This document shows positions 1 to 18,650 of a stretch of DNA of 24,000 bases, one piece after another. This stretch comes from Synechococcus sp. MIT S9452. Its GTDB lineage: Bacteria; Cyanobacteriota; Cyanobacteriia; PCC-6307; Cyanobiaceae. The stretch covers positions 871,287 to 895,286 of the forward strand of contig NZ_CP138956.1 of NCBI RefSeq assembly GCF_047304245.1, read 5' to 3'. Within the stretch, counting starts at the first letter, position 1. The number at the start of each line of letters is the position of its first letter. Under the pieces are notes generated by a model. It ran no database searches and was not told where the DNA came from. It worked only from the letters and a program-made list of their open reading frames with translations. The translations under genes and the position numbers were made by a program.

Positions 1-1
1 G

Positions 2-3000
2 CAGCTGCAGCAGATGGTCTTTAACCCTGCTGCAGAAGCCTCAGGTCAGGCCTCCTTCTCCTTCTCCGTCACTGACTCCGGCTCAATCGATGGCGACGGC
101 ACCATCATCAGCGCTCCAGAAGCGATCAGCGAAACCGTCAACATCAACATCCTTAACTTCAACGACGCTCCCATCCTTCCCACCACAGCCATCACCCTGG
201 CTGATGGCACAGAAGACACCGCCTACAACTTCACCGCTGAACAACTCCTCGCTGGTGTCACCGACCCAGACATCACCTACGCACCAGATGGCGTCACCGA
301 AATCTCTCGCGATGTCGACAACCTCCAAGTCACAGGCCTAACCGCCACCAACGGCACCATCTCCTTTGAGTTCACGCTTGATTCCACATTGAGCAGCGCT
401 CTTAGTGGGCTCTATCCATCACTGGAGAGCAACCAAGCAGACATCCTTTCGGCTGCCGAGTTGCTGCAAACAGCTGCCGAGGAACTCAGCAACGGCCAAG
501 CCATCAGCGATAGCTCTCTGTTCGATGCATTGAGCGCTCAAATTCCTGGCTTGCAACCGGATGCAGCAGATATCAACCAGGTTCAGGTCTTCCTCCAAGA
601 CTTTGATTCCGCACTCACAGGTGGCCAGGCGTTCCCTGGCTCACCTGAGCTCATTACGGCTCTGCAAACCACGTTCCCCGTTCTCCAAACCGATTTCTCG
701 GAACTCACAGAAGCCCAGGTCTTCCTCCAAGACTTTGATGCAGCACTCACAGGTGGCCAGGCGTTCCCTGGCTCACCTGAGCTCATTACGGCTCTGCAAA
801 CCACGTTCCCCGTTCTCCAAACCGATTTCTCGGAACTCACAGAAGCCCAGGTCTTCCTCCAAGACTTTGATGCAGCACTCACAGGTGGCCAGGCGTTCCC
901 TGGCTCACCTGAGCTCATTACGGCTCTGCAAACCGCGTTCCCCGTTCTCCAAACCGATTTCTCGGAACTCACAGAAGCCCAGGTCTTCCTCCAAGACTTT
1001 GATGCAGCACTCACAGGTGGCCAGGCATTCCCTGGCTCACCTGAGCTCATAACGGCTCTGCAAACCGCGTTCCCCGTTCTCCAAACCGATTTCTCGGAAC
1101 TCACTGAGGCTCAGACCTTCCTACAAGCAGCTGATCAAGCCCTAACCAACGGTCAGCCGTTCTCTGGATCGCCCGAGCTCATCACGGCTCTGCAAAGCAC
1201 TTTCCCTGTTCTCGCTGGAGAGCTGGGCGAAGCAGATCCCGCAGAGATCGAAGCCGCTCAGCTGGCGATCCAACAGGCCGCTGCTGAACTCACTGCAGGC
1301 GGACAAATCAGCAACCCTGACCTGCGTGATGCACTCAGCGTCGCCCTCCCCGCGGTTCTGATGGACCCTGCTGATCTCAACAGCGCTCAACAGCAGATCC
1401 AACAGGCCGCTGCTGAACTCACTGCAGGCGGACAAATCAGCAACGCTGACTTGCGTAATGCACTCAGCGTCACCCTCCCCGCGGTTCTGATGGACCCTGC
1501 TGATCTCAACAGCGCTCAACAGCAGATCCAACAGGCCGCTGCTGAACTCACTGCAGGCGGGCAAATCAGCAACCCTGACCTGCGTGATGCACTCAGCGTC
1601 GCCCTCCCCGCGGTTCTGATGGACCCTGCTGATCTCAACAGCGCTCAACAGCAGATCCAACAGGCCGCTGCTGAACTCACTGCAGGCGGACAAATCAGCA
1701 ACGCTGACTTGCGTAATGCACTCAGCGTCGCCCTCCCCGCGGTTCTGATGGACCCTGCTGATCTCAACAGCGCTCAACAGCAGATCCAACAGGCCGCTGC
1801 TGAACTCACTGCAGGCGGACAAATCAGCAACGCTGACTTGAGCAATGCACTTTTAAGCGCTGTGCCTGGCTTGGTGGCAGATCCAGCTGCAGCCACAACA
1901 GCGCAGCAACTCCTGGCAGACGGTGCCACCGCACTGTTGAACACCAGCTTCACCTTCAACCCCGACGCCAACTTCAACGGCATCGCCAACTTCAACTACT
2001 CCATCACCGATGGCACAGCAACCGTTTCCAACACCGTTGCTCTCAACGTCGCGGCGGTGAATGACGCACCAGAAGCCACCTTCTCTCTGGCTCAAATCAC
2101 CACTGAAGGCAATGCGATCCTGAGCGGCACATTGACCTCGTTTGATGTTGATGCTGTTGGCCAGGCACCTGCGACTGGATCTCCAGCCAACAGCGATACG
2201 GCTCAAAGTGCCGACCAGAACTCCGGTGAGAACAGCACCGGCGACAACACCAATGACCTTCCCGATGAGGGCCTGGTTGACGTGTTCTCAGTGCTCAGCA
2301 ATGAAGATGAGCTGAGCACACCGGCGTTTGAACCCGAGACAAGCAGCAACGCCGTTCCGCTGGAAACCGCAAGCTTCAGCTTGGTGTCGGCATCGATCAA
2401 AGATGCTGAAGGCAACGTTGTTTCCGACCCAACCACCGGAGAGCCTGTTGCTGTTGAAGGCCTCAGCATCAATGCCGATGGCACCTGGTCGTTTGATCCA
2501 GGTGATGGCGCTTACAACTCCCTCGCCGAAGGCGAAGTTCAAACCATCACGGTCAACTATCAAGTAGCCGACGCCGCTGGGCTGACGGATGGCAACTCCT
2601 TCGTTATTACGCTCACCGGCACCAACGATGCTCCGGTTGCCACCTTCTCTGAGGCGCAAACCGCCACAGAAGATGCTGCCGCCTTTACCGGTCAGCTGAC
2701 CTCAACCGATGTCGACATCAGCGACACCGTTTCCTACAGCCTCCTCGGCGCTGACATTGCTGGCCTCACCATCAACCCAGATGGCTCCTGGTCATTTAAC
2801 CCCGCTGATCCTGCGTACCAAGACCTCGCCGCTGGTGCCACGCAGGCGATCACGGTGCAGTACTCAGCAACCGATAACAACGGTGGTTCGGCCGCGAACC
2901 AGTTTGTGATCACCCTGACTGGCACCAACGACATCCCCGTCGTTGACACCAATGCCACCTCAAACCTGGCTGTTGGAGCAGAAGACACTGCTTACACAAT

Positions 3001-6000
3001 CTCCAAACAGCAATTGCTGGCTGGGTTCTCTGATCCGGATCGCGATGCTGCGGGAGTCATGCAGGCTCTAGACGTCATTGATGTGACAGCCAGCAACGGC
3101 AGCGTCACGACTGATAGCGATGGCGACTTTGTTTTCACACCAACTGCCAATTTCCATGGAACAGTCACGCTGAGCTACAAAGTCAGCGATGGCACAGCGG
3201 AGATCGAGGCGAGCAACAGCTTCTTGATGGCGGAAGTGAATGACACGCCGGTCCTCACCAGTGGTGTTGCTCCTGTGCTTGGCGATGGAACGGAAGATGT
3301 GCAGTACACGATTAATGCCAGCGAGTTGCTGGGCAGCTTCAGCGATGTTGATCAAGACAGCCTGAACATCCTGGCCCTGAGCTCAGAGTCAGGCACGATT
3401 CGCTCTGACCAGCAGAATCCAGGCAGCTACACATTTACACCGAATCAAGATCACAACGGCGCTGTGACCTTGAACTACATCGTTAGCGATGGCAGAGGCG
3501 GCAACGTGGAGGGCACAGCCACATTCAACCTGGAAGCTGTCAACGATGCTCCTGAGCTCACAGGTGCACCTGAAGTTCTATTCGAGAACATTGCTGAAGA
3601 TTCCGCCGGACTAACAATCAAAGCAAGCGACTTGCTGGCGAATTATTCCGACGTGGACGGCAATACTCTCAACATCACCAGCTTCTCGATCAAAGACCCG
3701 CTAGAGGGCGAGCCAAATCAAAACGCCATTCCGCTCGATCAGCGTATTGGATCAATTGCTGAAATTGAAAACAGTGGCAGCGTCACTGAATACAAGTTCA
3801 TTCCAGCCGCGAACTTCAATGGCTTCGTGCGCTTTGACTACACAATCTCTGATGGTCAGGCCAGCCTCAACCAGAGCTATGCCCTGGAAGTCACCAGCGT
3901 TAACGACGCACCAACAGGCGCCGACAAGACCATCCGCGCGACAGCCGGTGAGTTCATCACTCTGAGTCCTGCTGACTTTGGGTTCAGCGATGCCATTGAC
4001 CGTGATGTCATGCAGTCAGTGAAGCTCCAGCTGAAAGACAGCAACGGAAACTCAGTGCTAACCAGCGACAACTTAGAGATCACTGATGATTTCCTCAGCC
4101 AAGACGAGCAAAATAACGGTGTCAAAACTCTGTCATTTGCTCAACTTGCTGATGGCAAGGTTTCACTGAAAGCAGGAACCATATCCAGCAACACCAGGGT
4201 TCAATTCACCGTTGTTGACGACGGCAGTGAAACCATTGGATCTAATGAATCTGCGTCGCCCAATACCCTGACCCTCTACGCCGAACCGCCGGCAAGTGAT
4301 GACGTCACGATCATCAACCAGATTCGCGTCAATCAAGTGATTGACATCCTTGGCGAGACACTGACAACACAAGCAGAAAAGGATGAGTACTCCAACACCC
4401 TCAACCTCGCTGCTGCACTCAGCGATGAGATTCGGGTTGAATTCCTGAGGCAATATGACGTTGGCCTTTTCAGCGCAGAAGGTGGTGCTGGCGCCTTTAA
4501 AGCACGCCGCTTTATCCAATCCAACATCAGCACTGAAGGATTGGAGGGTGACCGCAATCAACTCGAGCAAAACATCAGCGGACTTGGGCTACAAAGCGCG
4601 ATCGAAAAGATTGACGTCAACACCAATTCCATAGTTCTGACCCTTGATCCCAGCAGCTGGACAGGCAAACACGAACTGATCTCTTCCACCTCAGGTTCAG
4701 GAGAGCAGCTCACCATTAACGACGACGGCAGCTGGAGCCTTGAGATCACGCCGCCTGCTGACGTTGAGGTACCTGGCGAGGTAGCTGATGCAGAAATATC
4801 TGCACTATTGAATGAAATCTATGGTGACGATTCTTGGAGCACGGATTCAGCCAAAGCAGCAGAAGCTATCGCCCTATTCGATAGCACTATCAACCAAATC
4901 AGTAGCGGTGGCCTGAATGCCATCAGCGATCCAGAACTGCTGAATGCACTTCAGCTTCAGATCCCTGAATTCCAAGAAGCTGTTGATGCAGCAGCACAAT
5001 TCACCTCTGCCGTTGAAACTCTGCAAACAGCAGCTGATTCCCTTGCCAATGATGATTTCGAGTCGATCGATAATGCTGAGCTCCGAGATGCTCTGCTGAA
5101 TCAGTTCCCTGATTTGGCCAGCGCTGGAGCTGATGCTGCAGCAGCCACAGCAGAGCTACAAGCCGCTTTTGATCAGCTCGCCGGTGGCGATATCAATGCA
5201 GTCAGCAACTTTGAACTCAAGGATGCCCTCAGCAATCAGTTCCCTGGCCTGAACAACGCTTCAAACGGAGCTAGCAACGAAATCAGCTTGGCCGTCAACG
5301 AATTACAGCAAGCAGTTAATCAACTCGAGAACGGAGGCATCAACTCAATCAGCAGCGCTGATATTCAATCCGCACTGCGCAATCAGTTCCCTGACATAGA
5401 AAACTCTCCTGCTGCAGCCAACGACGCCATGTTTGAGCTGCAGGCAACCATTAGTGATCTAGAGGAGGGCGGATTCAATTCCATCGGCAACTTCGAACTC
5501 AAGGATGCCCTCAGCCGCCAGTTCCCTGGCCTGAACAACGCTTCAAACGGAGCCAGCAACGAAATCAGCTTGGCCGTCAACGAATTACAGCAAGCAGTTA
5601 ATCAACTCGAGAACGGAGGCATCAACTCAATCAGCAGCGCTGATATTCAATCCGCACTGCGCAATCAGTTCCCAGACATAGAAAACTCTCCTGCTGCAGC
5701 CAACGACGCCATGTTTGAGCTGCAGGCAACCATTAGTGATCTAGAGGAGGGCGGATTCAATTCCATCGGCAACTTCGAACTCAAGGATGCCCTCAGCAAT
5801 CAGTTCCCTGGCCTCGATAACGCTTCAAACGGAACTAGCAACGAAATCAGCTTGGCCGTCAACGAATTACAGCAAGCAGTTAATCAACTCGAGAACGGAG
5901 GCATCAACTCAATCAGCAGCGCTGATATTCAATCCGCACTGCGCAATCAGTTCCCTGACATAGAAAACTCTCCTGCTGCAGCCAACGACGCCATGTTTGA

Positions 6001-6853
6001 GCTGCAGGCAACCATTAGTGATCTAGAGGAGGGCGGATTCAATTCCATCGGCAACTTCGAACTCAAGGATGCCCTCAGCCGCCAGTTCCCTGGCCTGAAC
6101 AACGCTTCAAACGGAACTAGCAACGAAATCAGCTTGGCCGTCAACGAATTACAGCAAGCAGTTAATCAACTCGAGAACGGAGGCATCAACTCAATCAGCA
6201 GCGCTGATATTCAATCCGCACTGCGCAATCAGTTCCCTGACATAGAAAACTCTCCTGCTGCAGCCAACGACGCCATGTTTGAGCTACAGGCAACCATTAG
6301 TGATCTAGAGGAGGGCGGATTCAATTCCATCGGCAACTTCGAACTCAAGGATGCCCTCAGCCGCCAGTTCCCTGGCCTGAACAACGCTTCAAACGGAGCT
6401 AGCAACGAAATCAGCTTGGCCGTCAACGAATTACAGCAAGCAGTTAATCAACTCGAGAACGGAGGCATCAACTCAATCAGCAGCGCTGATATTCAATCCG
6501 CACTGCGCAATCAGTTCCCTGACATAGAAAACTCTCCTGCTGCAGCCAACGACGCCATGTTTGAGCTGCAGGCAACCATTAGTGATCTAGAGGAGGGCGG
6601 ATTCAATTCCATCGGCAACTTCGAACTCAAGGATGCCCTCAGCAATCAGTTCCCTGGCCTCGATAACGCTTCAAACGGAACTAGCAACGAAATCAGCTTG
6701 GCCGTCAACGAATTACAGCAAGCAGTTAATCAACTCGAGAACGGAGGCATCAACTCAATCAGCAGCGCTGATATTCAATCCGCACTGCGCAATCAGTTCC
6801 CTGACATAGAAAACTCTCCTGCTGCAGCCAACGACGCCATGTTTGAGCTGTAG
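2..6853 (+). CDS. Giant repetitive secreted cell-surface protein (cadherin/VCBS-type, SwmB-like architecture). The 5' end is outside the window, and this segment ends at an in-frame TAG inside a repeat.
   Basis: The frame is open from nt 2 with no upstream stop, so the ATG at 14 is internal. Seven N-D-A/I/T-P domain junctions occur at about 161, 2059, 2624, 2927, 3238, 3541 and 3901, with ~100-aa spacing where consecutive. Motifs typical of VCBS/cadherin-like adhesin domains are present: DGSWSFNP...Y..LA.G...ITV.Y...D..G......F.ITLTGTNDAP, and EDTAYTI...LL.GFSD.D.D. Three tandem-repeat families are all in this frame. The TAG at 6851-6853 replaces the CAG seen in sister units. Confidence 0.85.
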   Translation, partial: QLQQMVFNPAAEASGQASFSFSVTDSGSIDGDGTIISAPEAISETVNINILNFNDAPILPTTAITLADGTEDTAYNFTAEQLLAGVTDPDITYAPDGVTEISRDVDNLQVTGLTATNGTISFEFTLDSTLSSALSGLYPSLESNQADILSAAELLQTAAEELSNGQAISDSSLFDALSAQIPGLQPDAADINQVQVFLQDFDSALTGGQAFPGSPELITALQTTFPVLQTDFSELTEAQVFLQDFDAALTGGQAFPGSPELITALQTTFPVLQTDFSELTEAQVFLQDFDAALTGGQAFPGSPELITALQTAFPVLQTDFSELTEAQVFLQDFDAALTGGQAFPGSPELITALQTAFPVLQTDFSELTEAQTFLQAADQALTNGQPFSGSPELITALQSTFPVLAGELGEADPAEIEAAQLAIQQAAAELTAGGQISNPDLRDALSVALPAVLMDPADLNSAQQQIQQAAAELTAGGQISNADLRNALSVTLPAVLMDPADLNSAQQQIQQAAAELTAGGQISNPDLRDALSVALPAVLMDPADLNSAQQQIQQAAAELTAGGQISNADLRNALSVALPAVLMDPADLNSAQQQIQQAAAELTAGGQISNADLSNALLSAVPGLVADPAAATTAQQLLADGATALLNTSFTFNPDANFNGIANFNYSITDGTATVSNTVALNVAAVNDAPEATFSLAQITTEGNAILSGTLTSFDVDAVGQAPATGSPANSDTAQSADQNSGENSTGDNTNDLPDEGLVDVFSVLSNEDELSTPAFEPETSSNAVPLETASFSLVSASIKDAEGNVVSDPTTGEPVAVEGLSINADGTWSFDPGDGAYNSLAEGEVQTITVNYQVADAAGLTDGNSFVITLTGTNDAPVATFSEAQTATEDAAAFTGQLTSTDVDISDTVSYSLLGADIAGLTINPDGSWSFNPADPAYQDLAAGATQAITVQYSATDNNGGSAANQFVITLTGTNDIPVVDTNATSNLAVGAEDTAYTISKQQLLAGFSDPDRDAAGVMQALDVIDVTASNGSVTTDSDGDFVFTPTANFHGTVTLSYKVSDGTAEIEASNSFLMAEVNDTPVLTSGVAPVLGDGTEDVQYTINASELLGSFSDVDQDSLNILALSSESGTIRSDQQNPGSYTFTPNQDHNGAVTLNYIVSDGRGGNVEGTATFNLEAVNDAPELTGAPEVLFENIAEDSAGLTIKASDLLANYSDVDGNTLNITSFSIKDPLEGEPNQNAIPLDQRIGSIAEIENSGSVTEYKFIPAANFNGFVRFDYTISDGQASLNQSYALEVTSVNDAPTGADKTIRATAGEFITLSPADFGFSDAIDRDVMQSVKLQLKDSNGNSVLTSDNLEITDDFLSQDEQNNGVKTLSFAQLADGKVSLKAGTISSNTRVQFTVVDDGSETIGSNESASPNTLTLYAEPPASDDVTIINQIRVNQVIDILGETLTTQAEKDEYSNTLNLAAALSDEIRVEFLRQYDVGLFSAEGGAGAFKARRFIQSNISTEGLEGDRNQLEQNISGLGLQSAIEKIDVNTNSIVLTLDPSSWTGKHELISSTSGSGEQLTINDDGSWSLEITPPADVEVPGEVADAEISALLNEIYGDDSWSTDSAKAAEAIALFDSTINQISSGGLNAISDPELLNALQLQIPEFQEAVDAAAQFTSAVETLQTAADSLANDDFESIDNAELRDALLNQFPDLASAGADAAAATAELQAAFDQLAGGDINAVSNFELKDALSNQFPGLNNASNGASNEISLAVNELQQAVNQLENGGINSISSADIQSALRNQFPDIENSPAAANDAMFELQATISDLEEGGFNSIGNFELKDALSRQFPGLNNASNGASNEISLAVNELQQAVNQLENGGINSISSADIQSALRNQFPDIENSPAAANDAMFELQATISDLEEGGFNSIGNFELKDALSNQFPGLDNASNGTSNEISLAVNELQQAVNQLENGGINSISSADIQSALRNQFPDIENSPAAANDAMFELQATISDLEEGGFNSIGNFELKDALSRQFPGLNNASNGTSNEISLAVNELQQAVNQLENGGINSISSADIQSALRNQFPDIENSPAAANDAMFELQATISDLEEGGFNSIGNFELKDALSRQFPGLNNASNGASNEISLAVNELQQAVNQLENGGINSISSADIQSALRNQFPDIENSPAAANDAMFELQATISDLEEGGFNSIGNFELKDALSNQFPGLDNASNGTSNEISLAVNELQQAVNQLENGGINSISSADIQSALRNQFPDIENSPAAANDAMFEL
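584..1243 (+). repeat. In-frame tandem repeat family A. Period is 132 bp (44 aa): four near-identical units plus one diverged unit.
   Basis: The string caggtcttcctccaagactttgat recurs at 584, 716, 848 and 980. The unit peptide is QVFLQDFDAALTGGQAFPGSPELITALQTTFPVLQTDFSELTEA. A diverged fifth unit starts at 1112, and a diverged related module precedes the array at 449-583. Confidence 0.95.
1256..1870 (+). repeat. In-frame tandem repeat family B. Period is 129 bp (43 aa), five units, with alternating variants that give a 258-bp higher-order period.
   Basis: The string atccaacaggccgctgctgaactcactgcaggcgg recurs at 1268, 1397, 1526, 1655 and 1784. The unit peptide is IQQAAAELTAGGQISN(P/A)DLR(D/N)ALSV(A/T)LPAVLMDPADLNSAQQQ. 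The NPDLRD and NADLRN variants alternate. Confidence 0.95.
1920..4290 (+). other. Beta-domain array within the giant protein: cadherin-like / VCBS-type ~100-aa domains joined by NDxP junctions, with DxDxD-type acidic motifs.
   Basis: Junction motifs seen are AAVNDAPEATFS, TGTNDAPVATFS, TGTNDIPVVD, AEVNDTPVLTSG, EAVNDAPELTG and TSVNDAPTGAD. Recurrent patterns include FTP.ANF.G...L.Y.VSDG and SDVDG/QD.LNI. An acidic, Ser-rich insertion lies at about 2150-2400. The domain family is assigned from motif knowledge, not from an HMM run. Confidence 0.7.
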
Positions 6854-7222
6854 GCAACCATTAGTGATCTAGAGGAGGGCGGATTCAATTCCATCGGCAA
6901 CTTTGAACTCAAGGATGCCCTCAGCAATCAGTTCCCTGGCCTGAACAACGCTTCAAACGGAACTAGCAACGAAATCAGCTTGGCCGTCAACGAATTACAG
7001 CAAGCAGTTAATCAACTCGAGAACGGAGGCATCAACTCAATCAGCAGCGCTGATATTCAATCCGCACTGCGCAATCAGTTCCCTGACATAGAAAACTCTC
7101 CTGCTGCAGCCAACGACGCCATGTTTGAGCTGCAGGCAACCATTAGTGATCTAGAGGAGGGCGGATTCAATTCCATCGGCAACTTCGAACTCAAGGATGC
7201 CCTCAGCAATCAGTTCCCTGGC
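5207..7222 (+). repeat. In-frame tandem repeat family C. Period is 282 bp (94 aa, two 47-aa modules): seven nearly identical full units plus a partial eighth.
   Basis: Units start at 5207, 5489, 5771, 6053, 6335, 6617, 6899 and 7181, each beginning aactt(t/c)gaactcaaggatgcc. Differences are limited to a few positions: S(N/R)QFPGL(N/D)NASNG(A/T)S, ccctgac versus cccagac, and gagctg/gagcta/gagctgTag. Diverged copies of the same module flank the array at about 4850-5206 and 7223-7500. Confidence 0.97.
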
Positions 7223-10200
7223 CTAAATAACGATCCCTCTCCAGAAGCCACTAGTGCTCGCGACGCACTGCAGCAAACCATTGATCAGCTTGCAAACGGC
7301 GGCATTAACTCCATCAGCAACGCTGAAATTCAAACTGCCCTGCGCAACCAGTTCCCTGGTCTCGACAGCTCCACAACGGCAGACGATGCCCGTTCAGAGC
7401 TGAATGCAGCGATCGATGAACTCAACACTGGCGGTATTAATGCCATCCAAAGCGATGACTTGCGCGATGCATTGCTTGAGCAGTTCCCTCAACTGGGACT
7501 GAGTTCTCTACAAACAGAAATCACCCAAAAGATGGGAGATGCAGCTCAGAAGCTGGGTACTAGCAGAACAGTGAGACAGTGGGATCTGACACCACCGGCC
7601 GACTCGATTGAAGTCAATTACAGCCTGGAGAGCTCCACCGGCCAATCAACAACACAATCGTTTGTTCTCAACATCAACATTGATAGTGATGCTCAAAGCG
7701 TCACAGGAGTCACGGCACAAACAAACCCAGCTAACGCCAACGAACAAGCAGTTGACCTGACTGTGACTTCCGATGGCTCGTTGACGTTCAGCGGGAGCTT
7801 GGCGACTCCTCCAGAGTCTCTGTTCCTGAACTACAGGGACAAGTCAACCAATAACGATGCCAGTGGCGTTCTTGAACTCAGCGGCGGTACTGACATCAAT
7901 GCCTTTATCCGCGAATTCAAGCTCGATGGCAGCACAAACACTGCTTCTCAGGCCACTGAAAGCTTCCAGTCAGCTGTTTTTGATGCCACTGCCAACACGC
8001 TGACACTCACACTCAATACCGGCGTAAGCAGCGATCTAACGGCACCCATTGCTGATGCCAATGGACTGACCTTTGCTGATGTGACGATCGACACCTCCAG
8101 CGAACTGGACACCAGCTCGCTATCCGTTGGCCAGTTGGTTGCCTACGGAGTTGTTGGTGGTGCTGATGCCAACTGGAGCTTCACCAACGTCACCAAAAAT
8201 GAAAGCAATCAACCTGTGCTTCCGACTGGCTTCCCAGATGCGGATGACACTTCAGGCAAAAAGCTCTACGCAGCGAGTGCCACAAGCACCATCAGCCTGA
8301 GAGATCGCTTCATCGTTACCCAAACTGCAGATGAGGCCACCAGGGTTCAGGCCCTGCAGGATCAAATTAATGCGCTGAATACGACCCTCGATGGCATCAA
8401 CAGCGGTGAGCTGATCCCCAAAACAGATCTACTGGCAGCCAACCCCAACCTCATCGATAGCGATGGCAAGGTTGACCTCACCAACTTGGCTGCGGCTATG
8501 CCCAATAGTGGCAATGAGCTGCTCAAGGGCGCAGACGATCCCAACGTCAATGAAGTTGCTGTGCAGATCGGCACAAACGAAGTTGCCATCGATAAAGAGG
8601 AGCTGGGCGAACTGCTTGCAGTCAAGAAGGAGACCTACAAAGAGGCCCTAACCGCTGGTTTCACCAGTGCAGAAGCAGGTACTGCCGCACAGATCAAGAC
8701 GATTGCAGCAGCGAAGGAATTCGGCGTGAATCTCAGCGCCGATGCCAGTGATACCGAGGCCAAAGCGGCGGCTGAATCATTCGACAAGGTCGCTCAGGAA
8801 TTCCTCAAGGCCGGTGTCACGGTGGCTGATGTGCTCGAGTCCGGCGATACAGAGCTCATCGAGCAAACCAAGCAATTGGTGAGTGACCCCAATGCAGCAG
8901 CAGCTGCTGCTGCTGCACGCGAGAAGCTCGATAACTACGTCTCGCCGTTTGGTGGTGTGGCCACCGTCACAGCACTTGACATCATCAAGCTGGCTACTAA
9001 AGCCGGACGCGCCCTCGATGGCGGCACCACCATCACGGATGTGGATGTTCTTGGTACCGATGATCTCTCGGAGACCAACGCAGCCTTCATTGGTGCTTTG
9101 GATGGAACCATCCAAGGAGCAGAAGGAGAAGGACTTAAGTTCAGCGCCGATAGCAAGGCGATGGTCTTTAAGTTCGAACTCAAAGGTGCAACACAAGCCA
9201 GCAAGACCATCAGCTATCTGGCCAGCGGCGAAGACATCTACTTAAAAGATGGCGCTGGCAACTACATCAAGGATGCCGCCGGGAACAATCAACTTATTGA
9301 AGCTGCTCAATCTGAGAATGCAGGTTTCGGGCCAGATGCCGACGGAAATGCAAAGTACGACAAGTACCTCAAGTACGTGTCTCACTACGACCTACTCCAG
9401 TACGGCGCAACTGAAACCGGGGACAAAGACGAGCAGGGCAACATGCTCTTCAGCTGGGATCTCGCTGCCACAGAAGTCGACCCAGCCAATGCAGGTCAGA
9501 TCAGATCCAAGGTGCGTACCGCTGATGGTGCTGCACTCACCACGCTCACTGGCCAGGTGATTGATCGAGCCGGGTGGTACGACTTCACCCAGCAAGGCGG
9601 TAGCGGCGATGGCGCCCGCTACATCGAAAATGACGCCGGACGAATCGTTGGCGTGGAGTTGAACTTCACGGCCAACAAATTCGGCGACAAGGCACCCGAC
9701 GATGACTTCATCACTGACCCGGGTGCCACCGTTGGCACTGAAACCATTGGTTCAGCTCCGACTCCAACGGCAGCTGCAGCGACGCTGGAACAGCGGCTCG
9801 AGGTTCAAACCGAAACCCAAACCCAACTCCCGCTGCAAAACCAGATCGTGCGGGAGACGCCCAACATCGTCAGCAACGCTCAGCCGCAGGATCCACGCCT
9901 AACCGGTACTGGCATCGGCCTCGATGCCTTCTACGGCGATGACATTGGTGTTGATGACTCCGGCGATGGCATCGCTGCCATGAACATCGGCAGCGGCGTG
10001 GGCCCAGGCGAAGCACTGCAATCCACCTCCAGCGGCCAAGGCGATGGCGAAATGAGCCTCAGCCAAGCTCTCAACACCTTCCTTGGCGAAGGCGAAGGCC
10101 AAGGCACCTCCGACACCCAAGGCCAAGCCAAGGGTCAAGGCGCAGAAGGCCAAGGCGCTGGCACCGGCGGGGATGCCGCCCTTGGGGAAGATCAATCCCC

Positions 10201-10984
10201 CGACACTCAGCGCAAGCGCGGCCTGCTGCTGCAGCCGATGATGAAGGCAGCGGAACAGGCCCAAGAGGCAGCCTCCAGCTCCAAGCTGCTGAAAAACCTG
10301 TCAGAAGGAACCCTGCTGGGCACCAACCTGCTCGATGCCCTGGCACTCGGCGCTGGTGTTCTTTACGCCCTCTATGCGCCCAAGGCGGTGGAGACCAGCC
10401 GCAAGGGTCTGCGCGGCTTGGTGGATCGCTTCCGCAACCAGGTCACCGGTGGCGGCGTCAAGATCCCTGAGAAGCAAGTGCTCTCGGTGTTTGCGATGCG
10501 CATGGCCAACGGCAGCGAACGCCTGGTGGCCGCCAAGGTGGGCATGGGCACCATGGAAGTGGTGGCCCAGCAGGATCTGCCGGCCGATGCTGGTGTCAAC
10601 AAGCCCGGCAGCCAAACCCAGGTCGACTACGCCGTCAAGCAGCTGGTCAACAAGCTGGGCGAGCGCACCAGTGATGTGTTGCTGATTGGTCCGCAACTCA
10701 GCAACCAGCGCTCACTGCTGGAGAACATCGCCGGTGAAACCCGCAACCTAGAAACCAGCAGCTTGGTGGAACGCATCAAGCAATGCAGCAGTGAGGAGAT
10801 CAGCCAACTGCGCGCTTGGCTCGATAAGCCCTCCAGCACACCTCCAGAAAGCAGCCCCGTCTATCAGCAGATGATGGGCCGCATGGAGAGCTACGGCGGT
10901 GTCTTCAGCCAAGAGCAAGCCTCGATGGCGTCGCTGATTGAGCTCAGCATCGCCCTGGGCTGGAGCGGAAGTGAGGCCGGCTAA
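6980..10984 (+). CDS. Continuation of the same giant surface protein, in the same frame as 2-6853. It covers the C-terminal unique region, a G/Q/E-rich low-complexity linker, one hydrophobic helix and a ~210-aa C-terminal domain.
   Basis: 14 and 6980 are both 2 mod 3. Translation directly after the TAG, from 6854, continues the repeat (ATISDLEEGGFNSIGNFELKDALSNQFPGL...). 6980 is only the first start-like codon (TTG) picked by the ORF caller and lies inside a repeat unit. The ORF ends at TAA 10982-10984. Confidence 0.8.
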   Translation: MAVNELQQAVNQLENGGINSISSADIQSALRNQFPDIENSPAAANDAMFELQATISDLEEGGFNSIGNFELKDALSNQFPGLNNDPSPEATSARDALQQTIDQLANGGINSISNAEIQTALRNQFPGLDSSTTADDARSELNAAIDELNTGGINAIQSDDLRDALLEQFPQLGLSSLQTEITQKMGDAAQKLGTSRTVRQWDLTPPADSIEVNYSLESSTGQSTTQSFVLNINIDSDAQSVTGVTAQTNPANANEQAVDLTVTSDGSLTFSGSLATPPESLFLNYRDKSTNNDASGVLELSGGTDINAFIREFKLDGSTNTASQATESFQSAVFDATANTLTLTLNTGVSSDLTAPIADANGLTFADVTIDTSSELDTSSLSVGQLVAYGVVGGADANWSFTNVTKNESNQPVLPTGFPDADDTSGKKLYAASATSTISLRDRFIVTQTADEATRVQALQDQINALNTTLDGINSGELIPKTDLLAANPNLIDSDGKVDLTNLAAAMPNSGNELLKGADDPNVNEVAVQIGTNEVAIDKEELGELLAVKKETYKEALTAGFTSAEAGTAAQIKTIAAAKEFGVNLSADASDTEAKAAAESFDKVAQEFLKAGVTVADVLESGDTELIEQTKQLVSDPNAAAAAAAAREKLDNYVSPFGGVATVTALDIIKLATKAGRALDGGTTITDVDVLGTDDLSETNAAFIGALDGTIQGAEGEGLKFSADSKAMVFKFELKGATQASKTISYLASGEDIYLKDGAGNYIKDAAGNNQLIEAAQSENAGFGPDADGNAKYDKYLKYVSHYDLLQYGATETGDKDEQGNMLFSWDLAATEVDPANAGQIRSKVRTADGAALTTLTGQVIDRAGWYDFTQQGGSGDGARYIENDAGRIVGVELNFTANKFGDKAPDDDFITDPGATVGTETIGSAPTPTAAAATLEQRLEVQTETQTQLPLQNQIVRETPNIVSNAQPQDPRLTGTGIGLDAFYGDDIGVDDSGDGIAAMNIGSGVGPGEALQSTSSGQGDGEMSLSQALNTFLGEGEGQGTSDTQGQAKGQGAEGQGAGTGGDAALGEDQSPDTQRKRGLLLQPMMKAAEQAQEAASSSKLLKNLSEGTLLGTNLLDALALGAGVLYALYAPKAVETSRKGLRGLVDRFRNQVTGGGVKIPEKQVLSVFAMRMANGSERLVAAKVGMGTMEVVAQQDLPADAGVNKPGSQTQVDYAVKQLVNKLGERTSDVLLIGPQLSNQRSLLENIAGETRNLETSSLVERIKQCSSEEISQLRAWLDKPSSTPPESSPVYQQMMGRMESYGGVFSQEQASMASLIELSIALGWSGSEAG

Positions 10985-10997
10985 CCCCCGGCCTCAC
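10971..10997. terminator. GC-rich stem-loop spanning the giant gene's stop codon, between convergent transcription units. It is a candidate bidirectional terminator or RNA-stability hairpin.
   Basis: A perfect 10-bp inverted repeat, gtgaggccgg (10971-10980) and ccggcctcac (10988-10997), flanks the 7-nt loop ctaaccc, which contains the TAA stop. No U-tract follows on either strand, so the intrinsic-terminator call is weak. Confidence 0.35.
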
Positions 10998-11051
10998 CCC
11001 ACCAGGGGCACTGGCGATGTATTGAAACCAAGCAAGGCTCAGTAGGTCGCT

Positions 11052-11543
11052 TTAAGCGGCCTGCTCGTCAGGTTTGATCGGGCAGTGCTCAACAATCAAA
11101 TCCATGATCAGCGTGGTGCGATTGGGCTGCGCCTGAATCGCAAAAGCTTCCTTCTCGATATCCCACTTACGACTGGAGTAATTGCGATAGAGGGTGTTGA
11201 ACACAGCCCGATCGACTGCATAACCAACCGGAGGCCGATAGCCAAGCGGCTTCATCTTGCCGGTCTTGCAGGCTTGAACGGCATGCACCGCTTCATGCAC
11301 AAACGTTTGCGGCATGATCCCCATCGCTTCAGTGATCGGATGCACCCAAATGGTTTTTTTCTTGGAATTCGCCATCCCATAGATGCCCTTGCGGGGCGGG
11401 GCCTGCAGCAAGACTGTCCAACCGCGTTGCTCTAAAGCATCAGCGATCGGCTGCAAATTCGCAGGAAACGCCAAGGCCGGCTTGAATGGCGCCAGCAGCG
11501 CCAAGGCCAAAGACGAACGGATCGCAAAGCTGATTCGGCTCAT
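11052..11543 (-). CDS. Small exported protein with an HExxH motif (putative zinc-metallopeptidase-like, ~163 aa). It is the last gene of the stator-like block.
   Basis: The preferred start is the ATG at 11543, which forms an ATGA overlap with the upstream gene's TGA (plus strand 11540-11543 reads tcat). The N-terminus MSRISFAIRSSLALALLAPFKPALA-FP looks like a signal peptide. It has a single FVHEAVHAVQ (HExxH) motif, with Glu residues ~40 aa downstream (EKEAF). The longer ORF reaching 11612 would overlap the upstream gene by 73 nt. Confidence 0.6.
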   Translation of the reverse strand: MSRISFAIRSSLALALLAPFKPALAFPANLQPIADALEQRGWTVLLQAPPRKGIYGMANSKKKTIWVHPITEAMGIMPQTFVHEAVHAVQACKTGKMKPLGYRPPVGYAVDRAVFNTLYRNYSSRKWDIEKEAFAIQAQPNRTTLIMDLIVEHCPIKPDEQAA

Positions 11544-12214
11544 TGGACCATCAAGGCGCGGCCAGAATTGCCCCAAAAATAGATCGGATCTCCGGCATAC
11601 CAAGGCTCCCAACCCAAAGGAACCTCATGCTGAATCGCTTTGGCTTTGATCTTGCGATATTGATCAAATCCTGTTTTCTCCAAAACAATGAACAGGGCTT
11701 CTTTGTTTTCAGACAGCCCCTTCATGAAGGCATCCAGCCGCTCAGGGTTGTTCTTGATCTCCGCCGCGGAAATCGTGGGCTGACCCGCCGCGCGAATCAA
11801 GCCATTGGCATGGGAGATCTCCATGCTCACTTGGCCGATGTTTTCATTGCGGGCCCAGCCATCAAGCTGAGCGTTACAGAGCTTTTGCTCAGCCGGCAGC
11901 AACTGCTGACAGCGGCGCACTTCTTCTCCGCGCTCACGGTCGAGCTCTGTCATGCGAGTGACGGCAGGCTGCAGGTCCCATAAACCATTGGCCGAGACCT
12001 GCACCAGATGAAACGAGCGGGTGCTCTTTTTGCTCATCGGCGCTTGGATATTCAAGGCGCTATTAGCCGCAATCACCCCGGTGAGCGAACCCACCAACGC
12101 CATCACACCCACAACGTTGGAGAGGATGTCGAGCAGGCCATCGGTGGACCCCTCAGGCACCCAACCTTTGCGCTTGCGGCGGTTCTTCAACAGCAGATCA
12201 CTGAGGCGCGGCAT
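11540..12214 (-). CDS. ExbD/TolR-like single-pass membrane protein (224 aa) with a conserved Asp at the cytoplasmic edge of the TM helix and an enlarged periplasmic domain.
   Basis: It has a basic N-terminus (KNRRKRK) followed by GLLDILSNVVGVMALVGSLTGVIA. This aligns by eye with the ExbD segment PFIDVMLVLLIIFMV, placing Asp29 at the ExbD Asp25 position. Next come LNIQAP (resembling i.v.LP) and a C-terminal motif, ALFIVLEKTGFDQYRKIKAKAIQHEVPLGWEP, shared with the neighbouring paralogue. The start codon overlaps the upstream stop (TAATG, 12212-12216). Confidence 0.6.
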   Translation of the reverse strand: MPRLSDLLLKNRRKRKGWVPEGSTDGLLDILSNVVGVMALVGSLTGVIAANSALNIQAPMSKKSTRSFHLVQVSANGLWDLQPAVTRMTELDRERGEEVRRCQQLLPAEQKLCNAQLDGWARNENIGQVSMEISHANGLIRAAGQPTISAAEIKNNPERLDAFMKGLSENKEALFIVLEKTGFDQYRKIKAKAIQHEVPLGWEPWYAGDPIYFWGNSGRALMVQ

Positions 12215-12678: not shown

Positions 12679-12696
12679 GGATGCGCTGGCCCTCGC

Positions 12697-14034: not shown

Positions 14035-14074
14035 GACGCGTAGATGTGCTGGTTAATCAAGTCGTTGCTATCGA

Positions 14075-14359
14075 TCAAGCCGACTTCGCGGCATCCCATT
14101 CCTTCCACTCCACTTCCACTTCACCAACGCCTTGGCTGGTCGGCGGCGGAATGCGGTTGAGCATGTCGTTGGGTAAGCCCAAACGCTCGAATACCACCTT
14201 GCGTTGATCGGTAGGCATCGAGGCAAAGGAGCGCACCACCTCGCGCACCTTGAACTCGCTGTAAACCAAATTCATCAGCTCTTCCTGGTCAGCAGGATCC
14301 AACTGCTGAAACCAAGCGAGGAATTTGGGCAGGCGTTGACTGAGATCAGAACTGGTCAT
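14075..14359 (-). CDS. Small soluble hypothetical protein (94 aa) lying between the T1SS genes and the stator-like genes.
   Basis: It is an intact ORF in the same orientation as its neighbours, 40 bp upstream of the MotA-like gene. There is no TM segment or signal peptide and no motif I recognise. Composition is helical and acidic, with a PPP-containing tail (RIPPPTSQGVGEVEVEWKEW). Confidence 0.5.
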   Translation of the reverse strand: MTSSDLSQRLPKFLAWFQQLDPADQEELMNLVYSEFKVREVVRSFASMPTDQRKVVFERLGLPNDMLNRIPPPTSQGVGEVEVEWKEWDAAKSA

Positions 14360-14447: not shown

Positions 14448-15629
14448 TCATTTGCTCGAGCGAATACTGCGCAGGGAATCCAACGCCTTCTGGATGGCAT
14501 CGGTGAGCAGCGAGATCACGCGCTTATCACGCAGCACCAAGTTGGCTTGAACGCTTTGACCTGGGCTGACTTTGTATTCCCTGCCATCACGCTCCAGGAA
14601 CTGCTGATCCAGTCCGATATAGGCGGGGAACCTGGCTTGAGGTGAGGTTTGATCCGGCGGAAGGGGCAAGGTGCCCACCGACTTCAACTCACCCTCGATG
14701 GCGCCAAATTGGGTGTAGGGGAAGGCATCCACCCGAATCTGGGCAGGCATGCCTGGCTCGAGGAAACCAACATCGCGGTTGGTGATGAACACCTTGGCCT
14801 CCAGCGCCCCGCCAGGAACCACCTTCACTAGGGTTTCTCCCGCTGAGGCGGCATAGCCCGGGCTCGAGGGCACCATGCCGTAAACAACGCCATTGACTGG
14901 CGACACCAGCACTTCCTTGCTGCGGGTGTCATTGACTTCCACCAGCTGCCGCTCCAGATCAGCCAGCTCGCCAAGGGACTCCTGCTTCATCTTGAGCAGC
15001 TGAGCCTGCACTTCCTGCAAGTTGGCTTTGGCCTGGGCTATTTGCGATTGCAGTTGTTCAATGCTGTTTTTTTGCTTCAGCACCTGCATCCGCTGAATCC
15101 CGCCTTGAGCAGCCAAGGGAACGATGGCGGCATAGATCTCACGCTCAGTAGCCAAGGCCCTTGAAAGGCCATCCATCCGCTCCTGCAAGCTTTGCTCCCG
15201 CGCGCGGAATGATCGGGTTTCTTCGGTAAAGCGATTTTCCTCCAGCTCGTATTGCCGCTCCAATGTTTCTTTGCGCTTTTCCGACACTTCGGTGTCCATG
15301 CGAATCAGCGCTTGGCCGGCCACGACCTCTTGGCCCTCAGTCACCAAAATCTCTTTGACCATGCCGGCAAACGGCGCTTTCAAAGGGCGTTCAGCGCCCA
15401 ACGGCTGGAGTTCACCAACAGCCAAGACCACCTCATCAATTTTGGCAAAACAGGCAAAAACAAAGGCAAAACTGGCGCTGCCAATGATCGTCCAGGCCAG
15501 GGCGCGGCTCCAGACCGGAGCAGGCCGCAAACGCACTTCCTGGGGATTCAGGGGGCGAACAGCCAAGCTTGACGGCTTCGCCAGGGCGGAGGATTTTTTG
15601 TCAGCTTTTTGGGGGAGGTTTTTATTCAT
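14448..15629 (-). CDS. HlyD-family membrane fusion protein (type I secretion periplasmic adaptor), 393 aa.
   Basis: It has an N-terminal cytoplasmic stretch and a single TM segment (WSRALAWTIIGSASFAFVFACFA). A lipoyl-like half-motif follows (LKAPFAGMVKEILVTEGQEVVAGQALIRMD), then a long coiled-coil (EKRKETLERQYELEE...QSQIAQAKANLQEVQAQLLKMK) and the second half-motif LVSPVNGVVYG. The beta-barrel motif VDAFPYTQFGAIEGELKSV is also present. The start lies 9 bp after the ABC gene's stop. Confidence 0.9.
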   Translation of the reverse strand: MNKNLPQKADKKSSALAKPSSLAVRPLNPQEVRLRPAPVWSRALAWTIIGSASFAFVFACFAKIDEVVLAVGELQPLGAERPLKAPFAGMVKEILVTEGQEVVAGQALIRMDTEVSEKRKETLERQYELEENRFTEETRSFRAREQSLQERMDGLSRALATEREIYAAIVPLAAQGGIQRMQVLKQKNSIEQLQSQIAQAKANLQEVQAQLLKMKQESLGELADLERQLVEVNDTRSKEVLVSPVNGVVYGMVPSSPGYAASAGETLVKVVPGGALEAKVFITNRDVGFLEPGMPAQIRVDAFPYTQFGAIEGELKSVGTLPLPPDQTSPQARFPAYIGLDQQFLERDGREYKVSPGQSVQANLVLRDKRVISLLTDAIQKALDSLRSIRSSK

Positions 15630-15638
15630 TGTTTTGGC

Positions 15639-18600
15639 TTAAACCTCCTGCTGGTGATAGAGGGTGGCGTAGCGACCATCCAGCTCCATGAGGTCTTCAT
15701 GGGTGCCCTGTTCAACCAAAGCCCCTTGATCCATCACCAAGATGTGATCAGCAGCCTTCAAGGAAGCAAGCCGGTGGGTAATAAAGAACACCGTGCTTCC
15801 TTTGTAGAGCTGCATGAGATTAGCAGTTAATCGCCGTTCAGTATCAACATCCAAGGCACTGGTGGCTTCATCCAACACCAACAATCTTGGTTTGCGAATA
15901 ATCATCCGCGCAATCGCCAAACGTTGGCGTTGGCCGCCGCTCAAGCCAGCACCACGTTCACCCACCGAGCTGCTGTAACCCGCTGGCATGGCCTCGATAA
16001 ATTCATGAGCGCAGGCCACCTGACCGGCCAAAACAATTTCTTCAAAGCCAGCATCTGGCCTGGTTAAAGCGATGTTGGACATCACGGTTCCGTCAAAAAG
16101 CAAGCTGTCCTGGGGCACAACGCCGATCTGAGCGCGCAACGAATAGAGATCCACCTTGCTGATGTCGTTGCCATCAATCCGAAGACTTCCCTCTGCTGGT
16201 TCATACAAACGGGTGAGCAGTTTTAACATCGTGCTTTTGCCAGAGCCACTACTTCCCACCACGCCAACAAAGGATCCAGCCGGAATCTTGAAGCCAACAT
16301 TCATCAGCTGCATCTTGCCAGTTTCACCAAAGCGGAAGCTGACGCCCGAATACTCCACTTCACCAACAATGGGGGGGATCGGAGGTTTTTGATCACCCGT
16401 AAGTTCCAGCTCCTGGGGATGATCAACAATGTCAGCCAAGCGCTCCAATGACAGAGCGGTTTCTTGGAAGTTCTGCCACAGGTTGGCCATGCGCAGCAGC
16501 GGGCTCGTCACGTAGCCAGCCAAGATGCGGAAGGCGATGAGTTGGCCCAAGGTCATCTCGCCTTTGAGCACCAAAGACGCACCCACCCAGAGCACCAATA
16601 GACCAGACAGTTGCTCTAAAAACTGACTCGCTGATGCTGCAGCTGTGCTGGTAACGACATTCTTAAAGCCCGATTGAATTTGGCCGCCGTAGAGCTGCTG
16701 CCAACGCCAGCGGCTATGCACCTCCATGCTTTGGCCTTTGATGGTTTCCATCCCGCCAAGGGTTTCCACCAAGTGGCTTTGCACTTTGGAATTGGCCTCA
16801 GCCTGCTGCCTGAGCTGCTTACGGATCACAGGAGCAGAGAAGAACGTGACGCCCACAAACAGAGGCACCACCGCCAAAGCCCAGAAGGTGAGCTGCACGG
16901 AATACAGCAGCATCACAGCGATATAAATCACCGCAAATACCGCATCCAAAATCACCGTTAAGGCGGTGCCTGTGAGGAAACGGCGAATTTTCTCGAGTTC
17001 ATTCAGCCGGCTGCTGACTTCACCCACCGGTCGATCGGCGAAATACCCCAGCGGCAACCGCAGCAGGTGATCGATGATCGTGGAACCCAAGGAAATATCA
17101 ATGCGGTTGGTGGTGTCAGAGAACAGATAGGTGCGCAACGACGACAGCACCGCTTGCGCTAACCCCATGCCCACCAGCAAGGTGCCGAGCACATTGAGGG
17201 TGCTGACATTGCCCTGGCTGATCACCGCATCGATGATTTGCTGAATCAGCAAGGGATTCAGCAAACCAAAAAGCTGCACAAAAAAGCTGGCCAGCAGCAC
17301 TTGAATCAGCACCGACTTGTACTGCTTCAACGCCGGCACGAACCAGCTGATGCCAAAGCGCTTGGTGGGCGTTTGTTGGCTGCGCTCAATGCAAAGCACC
17401 GTCAACAGCCCCTCCTCATCGCGCTCCTCCAAGGAGGCAATCGGGCGCAGGCCTTGCTCAGCGATGGGATCACCCACCAACACCTGCCCGCCTTGATCGC
17501 TATCCCACAGGATCATTGGGCCATAGGGGCCCATGGTGATCGCCGGAAATTGCAGGCGGGCCAACTGCTGATCATCAACATTCAGCTGGGAAGCCCGCAG
17601 GCCCATCACATCAGCAATAGCCGCCATCTGCAGCAAGCTGATGCCGGAACCGTCTTCATTGCGGTTGAGCTGATCCTCCAAGATCCGCTGCAACACGTCT
17701 TTGCGGAAGGGCAAATCGAACTGGCGGGCCAACATCCGCAACACAGCCATGGGTATCCCCACGGGCCCTTCACCTTTGAGGTGGGGGAAGCTGCCGTCAT
17801 CCGCTAGACGGCCATACCAATCCTCCAGAGCATCTTGCTGACGCTCCACCACCACGATGGCGGAGGAGCTTTCCTGCCAATCAGGCTCCAGCAGCTCAGC
17901 TTCGGTGCGAACCGGCTCGATTTCGCCACTATCGGGGGAGAGCACCATCACCGATGGGCTTTCCATCGGCGGTGTGGCAGCCGATTTAGCCAACAACCTT
18001 GCCGGCACTTGGCCGCGAATGTTGAGCTTGGCTGGTCCCAGCAGCTCTTCTCCGGGCGCAGCACCAGCAATGTTGCTGCTGCTCACCAGCCAAGGCCCCC
18101 AATCGGAGCCGAACTGGTGCTCGCCGGGAGGCAGCAACAGCACATGCTGCTGATCAGAGGCTTCCTCGAGTTGATTGCTAGCCCAATCCCGCAGGCTGCG
18201 CCGATCAGGGGTGCGCGGCGCGGGGCTATCGGCCGCCACCGCATACAACTCCTCCAACGATGGCTGGGCCAAAGCCAGTTGCAGACTTGGATATTCCCGC
18301 ACCACCTCCAAAAAGGTTTGCTGCGGGATCAGCCACAACTGGCTGGGCTGGGAGGCCGCTAAGGCTTGGCCGGCCACACCCCGCAGCAAACCCACATCAC
18401 CGGCACTATCACCAGATCCAAGCCGGCGCAGCGTGAAAGGCACATCCTGCTCATCAAGAGCCAACAAACGCATCTGGCCTTGGGCGACCAAGGCCACACC
18501 AGGCGGCAGGCAGTCGTAGTCGTAAAGCTTTTGCCCAGGCCGGAGCTGAAGCGCCTGCAGGGATTCGGCCAACTTGGCCTGGGCAGCTTGCGGCAAGCGC

Positions 18601-18650
18601 GAGTACGGAGCCCACGAGGCAATGAGCTTGAGAGCCAGCGTGAGCTGCAT
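15639..18650 (-). CDS. T1SS-type ABC exporter (1003 aa): N-terminal cNMP-binding-like domain, Cys-less C39-like domain, six-TM ABC membrane domain and a nucleotide-binding domain.
   Basis: NBD motifs are Walker A GSSGSGKST, Q-loop VVPQDSLLF, signature LSGGQRQR, Walker B LLVLDEATSALD and H-loop FFITHRL. The cNMP-like fold spans aa ~20-135 (LRPGQKLY...VALVAQGQMRLL...LRRLGSGDSAGDVGLLRG...LWLIPQQTF). The C39-like region spans aa ~285-425 (GIPMAVLRMLARQFDLP...SLLQMAAIADVMGL...FPAI...VLVGDP), with Pro at the catalytic Cys position and no H-[FY]-V-V. Confidence 0.92.
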   Translation of the reverse strand: MQLTLALKLIASWAPYSRLPQAAQAKLAESLQALQLRPGQKLYDYDCLPPGVALVAQGQMRLLALDEQDVPFTLRRLGSGDSAGDVGLLRGVAGQALAASQPSQLWLIPQQTFLEVVREYPSLQLALAQPSLEELYAVAADSPAPRTPDRRSLRDWASNQLEEASDQQHVLLLPPGEHQFGSDWGPWLVSSSNIAGAAPGEELLGPAKLNIRGQVPARLLAKSAATPPMESPSVMVLSPDSGEIEPVRTEAELLEPDWQESSSAIVVVERQQDALEDWYGRLADDGSFPHLKGEGPVGIPMAVLRMLARQFDLPFRKDVLQRILEDQLNRNEDGSGISLLQMAAIADVMGLRASQLNVDDQQLARLQFPAITMGPYGPMILWDSDQGGQVLVGDPIAEQGLRPIASLEERDEEGLLTVLCIERSQQTPTKRFGISWFVPALKQYKSVLIQVLLASFFVQLFGLLNPLLIQQIIDAVISQGNVSTLNVLGTLLVGMGLAQAVLSSLRTYLFSDTTNRIDISLGSTIIDHLLRLPLGYFADRPVGEVSSRLNELEKIRRFLTGTALTVILDAVFAVIYIAVMLLYSVQLTFWALAVVPLFVGVTFFSAPVIRKQLRQQAEANSKVQSHLVETLGGMETIKGQSMEVHSRWRWQQLYGGQIQSGFKNVVTSTAAASASQFLEQLSGLLVLWVGASLVLKGEMTLGQLIAFRILAGYVTSPLLRMANLWQNFQETALSLERLADIVDHPQELELTGDQKPPIPPIVGEVEYSGVSFRFGETGKMQLMNVGFKIPAGSFVGVVGSSGSGKSTMLKLLTRLYEPAEGSLRIDGNDISKVDLYSLRAQIGVVPQDSLLFDGTVMSNIALTRPDAGFEEIVLAGQVACAHEFIEAMPAGYSSSVGERGAGLSGGQRQRLAIARMIIRKPRLLVLDEATSALDVDTERRLTANLMQLYKGSTVFFITHRLASLKAADHILVMDQGALVEQGTHEDLMELDGRYATLYHQQEV

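Follow-up and report, generated by a model that had tools for sequence, protein, structure and literature searches.

The closest described counterpart of the gene considered here is SwmB of Synechococcus sp. WH8102, a giant cell-surface protein of 10,791 amino acids that is required for non-flagellar swimming (McCarren & Brahamsha 2007, as cited in passages of PMC4949707 and PMC7522525). A second point of comparison is provided by the large substrates of type I secretion systems, such as HlyA and LapA. For HlyA- and RTX-type substrates it is established that the signal for type I secretion lies at the C-terminus. Here we analyze a stretch of 24,000 nucleotides from Synechococcus sp. MIT S9452 (NCBI RefSeq assembly GCF_047304245.1, contig NZ_CP138956.1, positions 871,287 to 895,286 of the forward strand; hereafter the window), in which a single in-frame amber codon interrupts a gene that, like swmB, specifies a giant, highly acidic, repeat-rich picocyanobacterial protein of the surface type. 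We lean towards the reading that this codon is a real and recent nonsense mutation whose product is defective in export or anchoring.

The amber codon (TAG) occupies positions 6851-6853 of the forward strand, where the local sequence is ATGTTTGAGCTG TAG GCAACCATT (positions 6840-6860 read ATGTTTGAGCTG TAG GCAACC). The equivalent codon is CAG in all six sister units of the surrounding tandem array (at 5441, 5723, 6005, 6287, 6569 and 7133), where it sits in the context AMFELQATISDLEEGG. Positions 14, 6851, 6980 and 10982 share one reading frame, and translation of positions 14-10984 yields 3,656 codons, interrupted by a stop only at codon 2280 and closed by the TAA at 10982-10984. Because the frame is open already from base 2 of the window, the start of the gene lies upstream of the window. 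Beyond the TAG the frame continues uninterrupted for 1,376 codons; the longest open reading frame (ORF) in any other frame of positions 6854-10984 is no longer than 139 amino acids, and the open codons that follow the TAG are therefore not a product of chance. No indel or frameshift was found in this 11-kb, repeat-rich ORF. The amber codon is a nonsense lesion at a site that is one mutation away from the sense codon of the homologous copies, and the C>T change at 6851 that creates it also abolishes a CTGCAG hexamer. An earlier note on this DNA, made from the letters of the sequence, had described the TAG, the CAG codons of the six sister units, a frame that stays open to the TAA at 10982 and a near-identical 282-bp repeat; each of these descriptions was borne out when we read the sequence, checked the frame and its translation, and ran Tandem Repeats Finder.

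The array that contains the codon extends over positions 5205-7232, with a period of 282 bp, 7.2 copies, 97% matches and 0% indels. Unit 6 (6615-6896), which bears the TAG, differs from unit 3 (5769-6050) at a single position, the C>T at 6851. Across the seven units, variation is confined to 12 of the 282 offsets, and T at the site equivalent to 6851 occurs in no sister unit. The other three single-unit variants (offsets 67, 187 and 235) are all synonymous third-position changes (P ~0.01 if random), which indicates that the assembly appears to resolve true unit-specific variation and not noise. Around the site, ~220 bp (6683-6903) are exactly common to several units. The 31-mers that span the site are GCCATGTTTGAGCTGTAGGCAACCATTAGTG in the T version and GCCATGTTTGAGCTGCAGGCAACCATTAGTG in the C version. 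A degenerate DNA pattern for the encoded segment AMFEL[Q/*]ATISDLE found 0 matches in the Joint Genome Institute (JGI) metagenomes, so that the repeat was not seen elsewhere and these data yield no natural C/T frequencies for the site.

Two of the four single-unit variants are adjacent, namely G>A at 6286 (unit 4; CTG>CTA, synonymous) and C>T at 6851 (unit 6). These changes fall on the two central bases of a CTGCAG palindrome (6284-6289 and 6848-6853, respectively), and are thus one and the same C>T change, read from either strand. Four offsets drawn at random would include an adjacent pair with a probability of ~4%. A methylation hotspot at CTGCAG was considered and rejected, since the window has 38 copies of the motif where 39 are expected and shows no enrichment of its decay products; a methylation-linked hotspot or a base-calling bias at CTGCAG is only a lead.

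The region beyond the stop belongs to a family with a characteristic end. An exhaustive HMMER search with the post-stop part against 1.84 billion representatives returned 157 relatives, the matches reaching the C-termini of the hit proteins. A word-indexed search with the last 490 residues returned 48 homologues, all of them gene fragments of metagenomes or metagenome-assembled genomes (MAGs), one of these being a Synechococcus MAG. Among 38 JGI metagenome loci that carry the conserved C-terminal module of this protein, all 38 have a stop within 0-8 codons after the end of the module, and in 35 the ORF is open upstream to the start of the contig, over as much as 9 kb. The normal state of the family is thus one giant ORF that ends in the module. 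The other three loci have frameshift-type breaks of the giant ORF just 5' of the module, with overlapping upstream and downstream ORFs (Table 1); these breaks could be assembly errors or natural disruptions. The ratio of nonsynonymous to synonymous substitution rates (dN/dS) of the post-TAG region, relative to two metagenome relatives, is 0.14 (740 codons) and 0.04 (279 codons), which points to purifying selection in the lineage as a whole and does not date the stop. The claim that a single CAG-to-TAG change splits one otherwise intact giant gene is accordingly backed from five sides: by the shared frame, by purifying selection, by the terminal module, by the normal use of TAG elsewhere in the window and by the lack of signals for restart or readthrough.

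The module itself has a constant layout. In an alignment of the homologues, a Gly/Asp/Gln-rich linker is followed by a sequence motif, a hydrophobic segment and ~200 conserved residues that extend up to the last amino acids. The motif, ALGEDQSP.TQRKRGL.LQP (which contains R-G-L-x-L-x-P), is almost invariant across the aligned homologues, and the hydrophobic segment, LLDALALGAGVLYALYAP, is the most hydrophobic of the entire protein. No Pfam or NCBIfam model matches the post-stop part. AlphaFold2 was confident only for residues ~178-345 of the module (the last ~170; predicted local distance difference test score 85-94), which it modelled as an alpha/beta domain, and a Foldseek search of the modelled module against the PDB gave nothing at E <= 0.001. 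An assignment of function from the fold was tried and abandoned, because Foldseek offered only weak matches (transposases, ribosomal proteins, and terminase or UvrC nuclease domains). The module would seem to be a domain, as yet undescribed, that defines a family of giant picocyanobacterial proteins, and this uncharacterised, always-terminal element common to the family is a useful by-product of the analysis. It is lost if translation ends at 6851.

As for the comparison with related genes that the earlier note had proposed as a check on the site, 35 of the 38 metagenome loci have one continuous ORF. Scans of the GTDB representative genomes (a few stretches of which were masked) with the C-terminal 1,189 amino acids and with the MotA/ExbB-like neighbour of the gene found no relative. 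One metagenome contig, L006, has a flank that is ~90% identical at the nucleotide level and the same gene order as the window; when L006 1-11365 is set against window 1-10984, its giant gene proves to be strongly diverged and to be without the 282-bp array. The body of the gene thus appears to be hypervariable, and the C-terminal module and the neighbourhood appear to be conserved. L006 is a noisy, frameshift-ridden contig built from long reads, with its ABC and MotA-like genes themselves split, and for this reason, together with its want of the array, we dropped it as an orthologous control for site 6851.

We found no sign of programmed readthrough or recoding within the window. TAG is the normal terminator of the neighbouring ORFs 18720-19463 and 20278-22890 (the latter a PepN homologue), no tRNA gene is present in the window, and shuffled sequences fold as well as the RNA 3' of the stop does (z = -1.2). 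Positions 6400-7700 contain no promoter-like or terminator-like site. The first in-frame start codons after the TAG, TTG 6980 and ATG 7121, both lie within repeat units and are not preceded by a Shine-Dalgarno-like sequence; for the TTG, the 20 nucleotides upstream hold no GGAGG-like ribosome-binding motif.

The sequence of events that we favor would run as follows. A C>T transition at 6851 would have turned the Gln codon CAG of unit 6 into amber, in a gene that may specify a giant surface protein of the SwmB family in a Synechococcus-like picocyanobacterium. With translation ending at codon 2280 of the visible part of the gene, the product would be deprived of its last 1,376 residues, the conserved C-terminal module among them. 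Since type I export signals are C-terminal, and since the module is the invariant end of the family, the truncated protein would most likely be neither exported nor anchored, which would make this a functional null allele. Such an account presumes a real base, a role of the neighbouring exporter in handling this protein, and a loss of export along with the module. Given a real base, the giant surface protein of the strain is cut short and lacks the conserved C-terminal module, and the strain is probably a natural null for the role of that protein, which in SwmB-like proteins is surface architecture, grazing defence or swimming. A natural null of this kind would matter for phenotype work with the strain.

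Several observations suggest that the T at 6851 is a real base. Because no sister unit has T at the site, mis-placed or collapsed reads cannot create it. The array is free of indels, although indels are the commonest consensus error of long reads, and the three other singleton variants, being synonymous in every case, look selected. Furthermore, the flank is identical to that of an independent assembly: the strain has just one other assembly, made by Logan from run SRR32655888, and this corresponds to window 7187-22214 with 0 substitutions in 15 kb. (The sole difference between the two in these 15 kb is one extra T in the Logan contig, L001, at window 7213-7216, CAGTTTCCC against CAGTTCCC; it lies ~30 nucleotides from the end of the contig, in the repeat, and is probably a contig-tip artefact.)

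Four points weigh against the preferred account. The Logan contig stops at 7187, inside the last repeat unit, and so is silent on 6851; its identity to the window and its break together indicate that the flanks are accurate and that a k-mer assembly cannot cross the array. The repeats of swmB in published Synechococcus genomes have been left as gaps or "manually reconstructed", as stated in passages of PMC7522525 and PMC4559175, which makes errors in such arrays a realistic possibility. Three of the 38 related metagenome loci are broken within this gene family, maybe through assembly errors. Lastly, where purifying selection on a gene is strong, nonsense mutations should seldom occur in nature.

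The alternative is that the T arose as an error of the consensus, of base calling or of the reconstruction of the repeats, and that the genome has CAG in all seven units and an intact gene, which we regard as possible but as the less probable explanation. Short-read polishing typically skips multi-mapping regions, leaving long-read errors in repeats, and residual errors of this sort tend to survive where short reads cannot polish; the site lies in the ~220 bp that are identical among several units, within 2 kb of repeats that are 97-100% identical. The failure of a k-mer assembly of the same strain to cross the array, the documented history of the swmB repeats and the perfectly intact state of the downstream 4.1 kb all fit an artefact as well, and the adjacent singletons at 6286 and 6851 in one CTGCAG could reflect a motif-specific base-calling problem, against which it can be said that CTGCAG occurs in the window about as often as expected. 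The absence of T from the other units, the freedom of the array from indels, the synonymous character of the other unit-specific variants and the agreement of the flanks with an independent assembly tell against an artefact. Should the T nonetheless be an artefact, the division of this giant gene in the public annotation is an error; its 3' part has already been deposited as a separate protein.

That separate protein, of 1,334 amino acids (P0001 in Table 1), is assigned in NCBI and UniRef to a contig of 2,404,523 bp; it begins at the first in-frame TTG after the TAG, and its record looks like a consequence of the stop for annotation and not like a separate gene. Two queries, the post-TAG part and a segment across the site with Q in place of the TAG, were run as word-indexed protein searches, and both returned only this ORF of the window itself. 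The 5' giant ORF was not returned from the protein collection, though it is 100% identical to the site-spanning query where the two overlap, so that the halves seem to be handled differently in the public record.

If the nonsense mutation is real, its age is only loosely bounded. Stop-creating changes account for 2.7% of the possible substitutions in the ORF, and the lack of decay downstream is for this reason a weak clock: we estimate that zero further lesions in 4.1 kb corresponds to less than ~0.5-3% neutral divergence, a figure that depends on the assumed share of indels, and a bound about as loose comes from the identity between units 3 and 6. The claim that the change is either recent or not real agrees with all of the tests that we ran. 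For the stronger claim, that the lack of decay makes it very recent, the word recent is justified, but a laboratory time-scale does not follow.

A further alternative is that the culture is mixed, with amber cells alongside cells that have an intact array, maybe of another unit number. In such a culture the T could be lost or replaced when the in-frame 282-bp units exchange sequence by unequal recombination or gene conversion; the knock-out would then revert at a high rate and act as an on/off variant of what is a costly surface protein. The units are 94 codons long, so that deletion of any unit would stay in frame, unit 6 has an identical twin in unit 3 and near-identical neighbours as partners for recombination, and the array is not present in the relative with ~90% identical flanks, so that this part of the gene turns over quickly. 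We nevertheless consider a mixed culture unlikely, as there is no direct evidence of heterogeneity and the assembly gives a single sequence. Moreover, the lesion is a single base substitution, whereas phase-variable loci are marked by slippage in simple repeats, an invertible segment or methylation, and it falls neither in a slippage-prone simple repeat nor in an invertible element. More doubtful still, in our judgment, is a related idea in which a real amber codon is erasable by recombination or conversion among the units, restoring a slightly shorter intact gene, and in which populations would therefore carry a reversible off-state, needing no dedicated machinery, of a giant surface protein that is extremely costly; were this so, the transitions at 6286 and 6851 would hint at a mutational hotspot, e.g. 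a modified cytosine, that feeds the switch. Least credible of all is that the stop is real but tolerated, through readthrough or suppression of the TAG or through synthesis of the 3' part from an internal start with both polypeptides functional, since what speaks for it, the public record of the TTG 6980 ORF as a separate protein, is set against the normal termination of neighbouring genes by TAG, the lack of a tRNA gene in the window, of a stable downstream fold, of a promoter-like site in 6400-7700 and of Shine-Dalgarno-like sequences before two start codons that lie inside repeat units, and the one continuous ORF of 35 of 38 relatives.

Upstream of the stop, the giant protein contains cadherin-like, Big_9 and VCBS/tandem-95 domains. 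Its three tandem arrays encode versions of one motif of 43-47 amino acids (approximately ..L..GG.I....L..AL...FP.L), for which no Pfam or NCBIfam model exists among the matches, spurious sub-threshold ones being all that was obtained. The RTX nonapeptide (GGxGxDxUx) has 0 matches in the 3,656 residues.

The genes that follow the giant gene lie on the opposite strand (Table 1), and include, in addition to those tabulated, PPIase-like, ParA-like and PepN genes. Within 8 kb of the giant gene are genes for a HlyB-type transporter and a HlyD-type adaptor, an arrangement whose synteny is held in L006. The former matches TIGR01846 with E 8.7e-205 and 682 bits, relative to a curated NCBIfam cut-off of 725.55; the latter matches TIGR01843 with E 2.1e-51 and 175 bits, relative to a cut-off of 208.65. 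In the HlyB-like transporter, a cyclic nucleotide monophosphate (cNMP)-binding domain precedes the C39-like domain, which suggests that export may be regulated by cNMP. Linkage to these genes makes it reasonable to infer that the giant protein is a type I secretion substrate. Between the giant gene and the exporter genes are several small ORFs and a gene for a MotA/ExbB-like protein, an arrangement that is kept in both L001 and L006. A proton-channel protein beside a SwmB-like gene is worth a look, the swimming motor of Synechococcus being unexplained. This conserved neighbourhood, in which a type I exporter and a MotA/ExbB-like protein accompany a giant gene, is a second useful by-product.

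Table 1. Positions of the features discussed in the text (window coordinates, except for the three named metagenome loci)
Feature	Position	Strand	Description
5' part of giant ORF	1..6850	+	at least 2,279 codons, runs off window start; cadherin-like, Big_9 and VCBS domains; three arrays of the 43-47-amino-acid motif
Motif array 1	584-1213	+	132-bp units
Motif array 2	1267-1851	+	129-bp units
Tandem array	5205..7232	+	282-bp = 94-codon units, 7.2 copies
Unit 6, bearing TAG	6615..6896	+	equals unit 3 (5769-6050) at the other 281 positions
Amber TAG	6851..6853	+	CAG (Gln) at the equivalent codon of six sister units
3' continuation, same frame	6854..10984	+	1,376 sense codons, then TAA; dN/dS 0.14 and 0.04
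Post-TAG ORF from first in-frame TTG (P0001)	6980..10984	+	1,334 amino acids; in NCBI and UniRef as a protein
Conserved C-terminal module	9941..10981	+	~340 amino acids; Gly/Asp/Gln-rich linker, R-G-L-x-L-x-P motif, hydrophobic helix 10307-10381, alpha/beta domain 10472-10975
Small ORFs, unannotatable, overlapping	11052-11612, 11540-12214, 12214-12678	-	
MotA/TolQ/ExbB proton-channel-domain protein	12697-14034	-	445 amino acids; Pfam E 3e-8, plus a weak ZorA match
HlyD-family membrane-fusion protein	14448..15629	-	393 amino acids; TIGR01843
HlyB-type ABC permease/ATPase	15639..18650	-	1,003 amino acids; TIGR01846; N-terminal cNMP-binding and C39-like domains
Broken locus L016	near 2269-2311		apparent frameshift
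Broken locus L028	near 6437-6552		apparent frameshift
Broken locus L035	near 3208-3304		apparent frameshift

How, then, does this locus compare with what has been described? Beyond the likeness in general character noted at the outset, it has in common with SwmB that its repeats defeat short-read assembly, and its C-terminal module shares 37-41% identity with a MAG protein to which the name SwmB was given by its source. (This is a homologue from the search with the last 490 residues, a MAG fragment with the source name "SwmB-cell surface protein required for swimming motility", which over those residues shows 37% identity at 98% coverage.) The gene visible here has at least 3,656 codons and three repeat arrays and runs off the window, as compared with the full 10,791 residues of SwmB. 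Unlike a firm SwmB orthologue, however, it is set beside SwmB through the name of one MAG fragment only, it has no relative in the GTDB representatives scanned, and its 282-bp array is not found even in a relative as close as L006. Membership of the SwmB family is thus plausible, not established, with orthology and a role in motility unproven. The suggestion in the earlier note that the stop might mark a non-motile variant fares likewise: the resemblance to the SwmB-named fragment speaks for it, but the connection goes no further than that name.

With type I substrates such as HlyA and LapA, the giant protein shares its large size and repetitive make-up with cadherin, Big and VCBS domains, the proximity of its gene to those for an HlyB-like ABC transporter with a C39-like domain and an HlyD-like adaptor, and the placement of its family-defining element at the extreme C-terminus. 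It differs from RTX adhesins and toxins in that it has no RTX nonapeptide repeats, and membership of the RTX subclass is not supported. It differs from the HlyA and LapA systems in that the neighbouring ABC and membrane-fusion proteins score below the NCBIfam cut-offs given above, and in that its module combines a hydrophobic helix with a folded alpha/beta domain for which there is no Pfam or NCBIfam model and no PDB match at E <= 0.001. The claim that the protein is a type I substrate is therefore upheld as regards gene linkage, but not as regards scores above cut-off or RTX repeats.

The lesion itself is of an ordinary kind, a nonsense codon or a repeat-associated error, and constitutes no new kind of feature. 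As in ordinary nonsense pseudogenes and in genes split by error, a single in-frame stop stands at a sense codon of the paralogues and the sequence downstream is intact; the sole difference is the position of the stop within a tandem array, which offers a precise route for its reversion.

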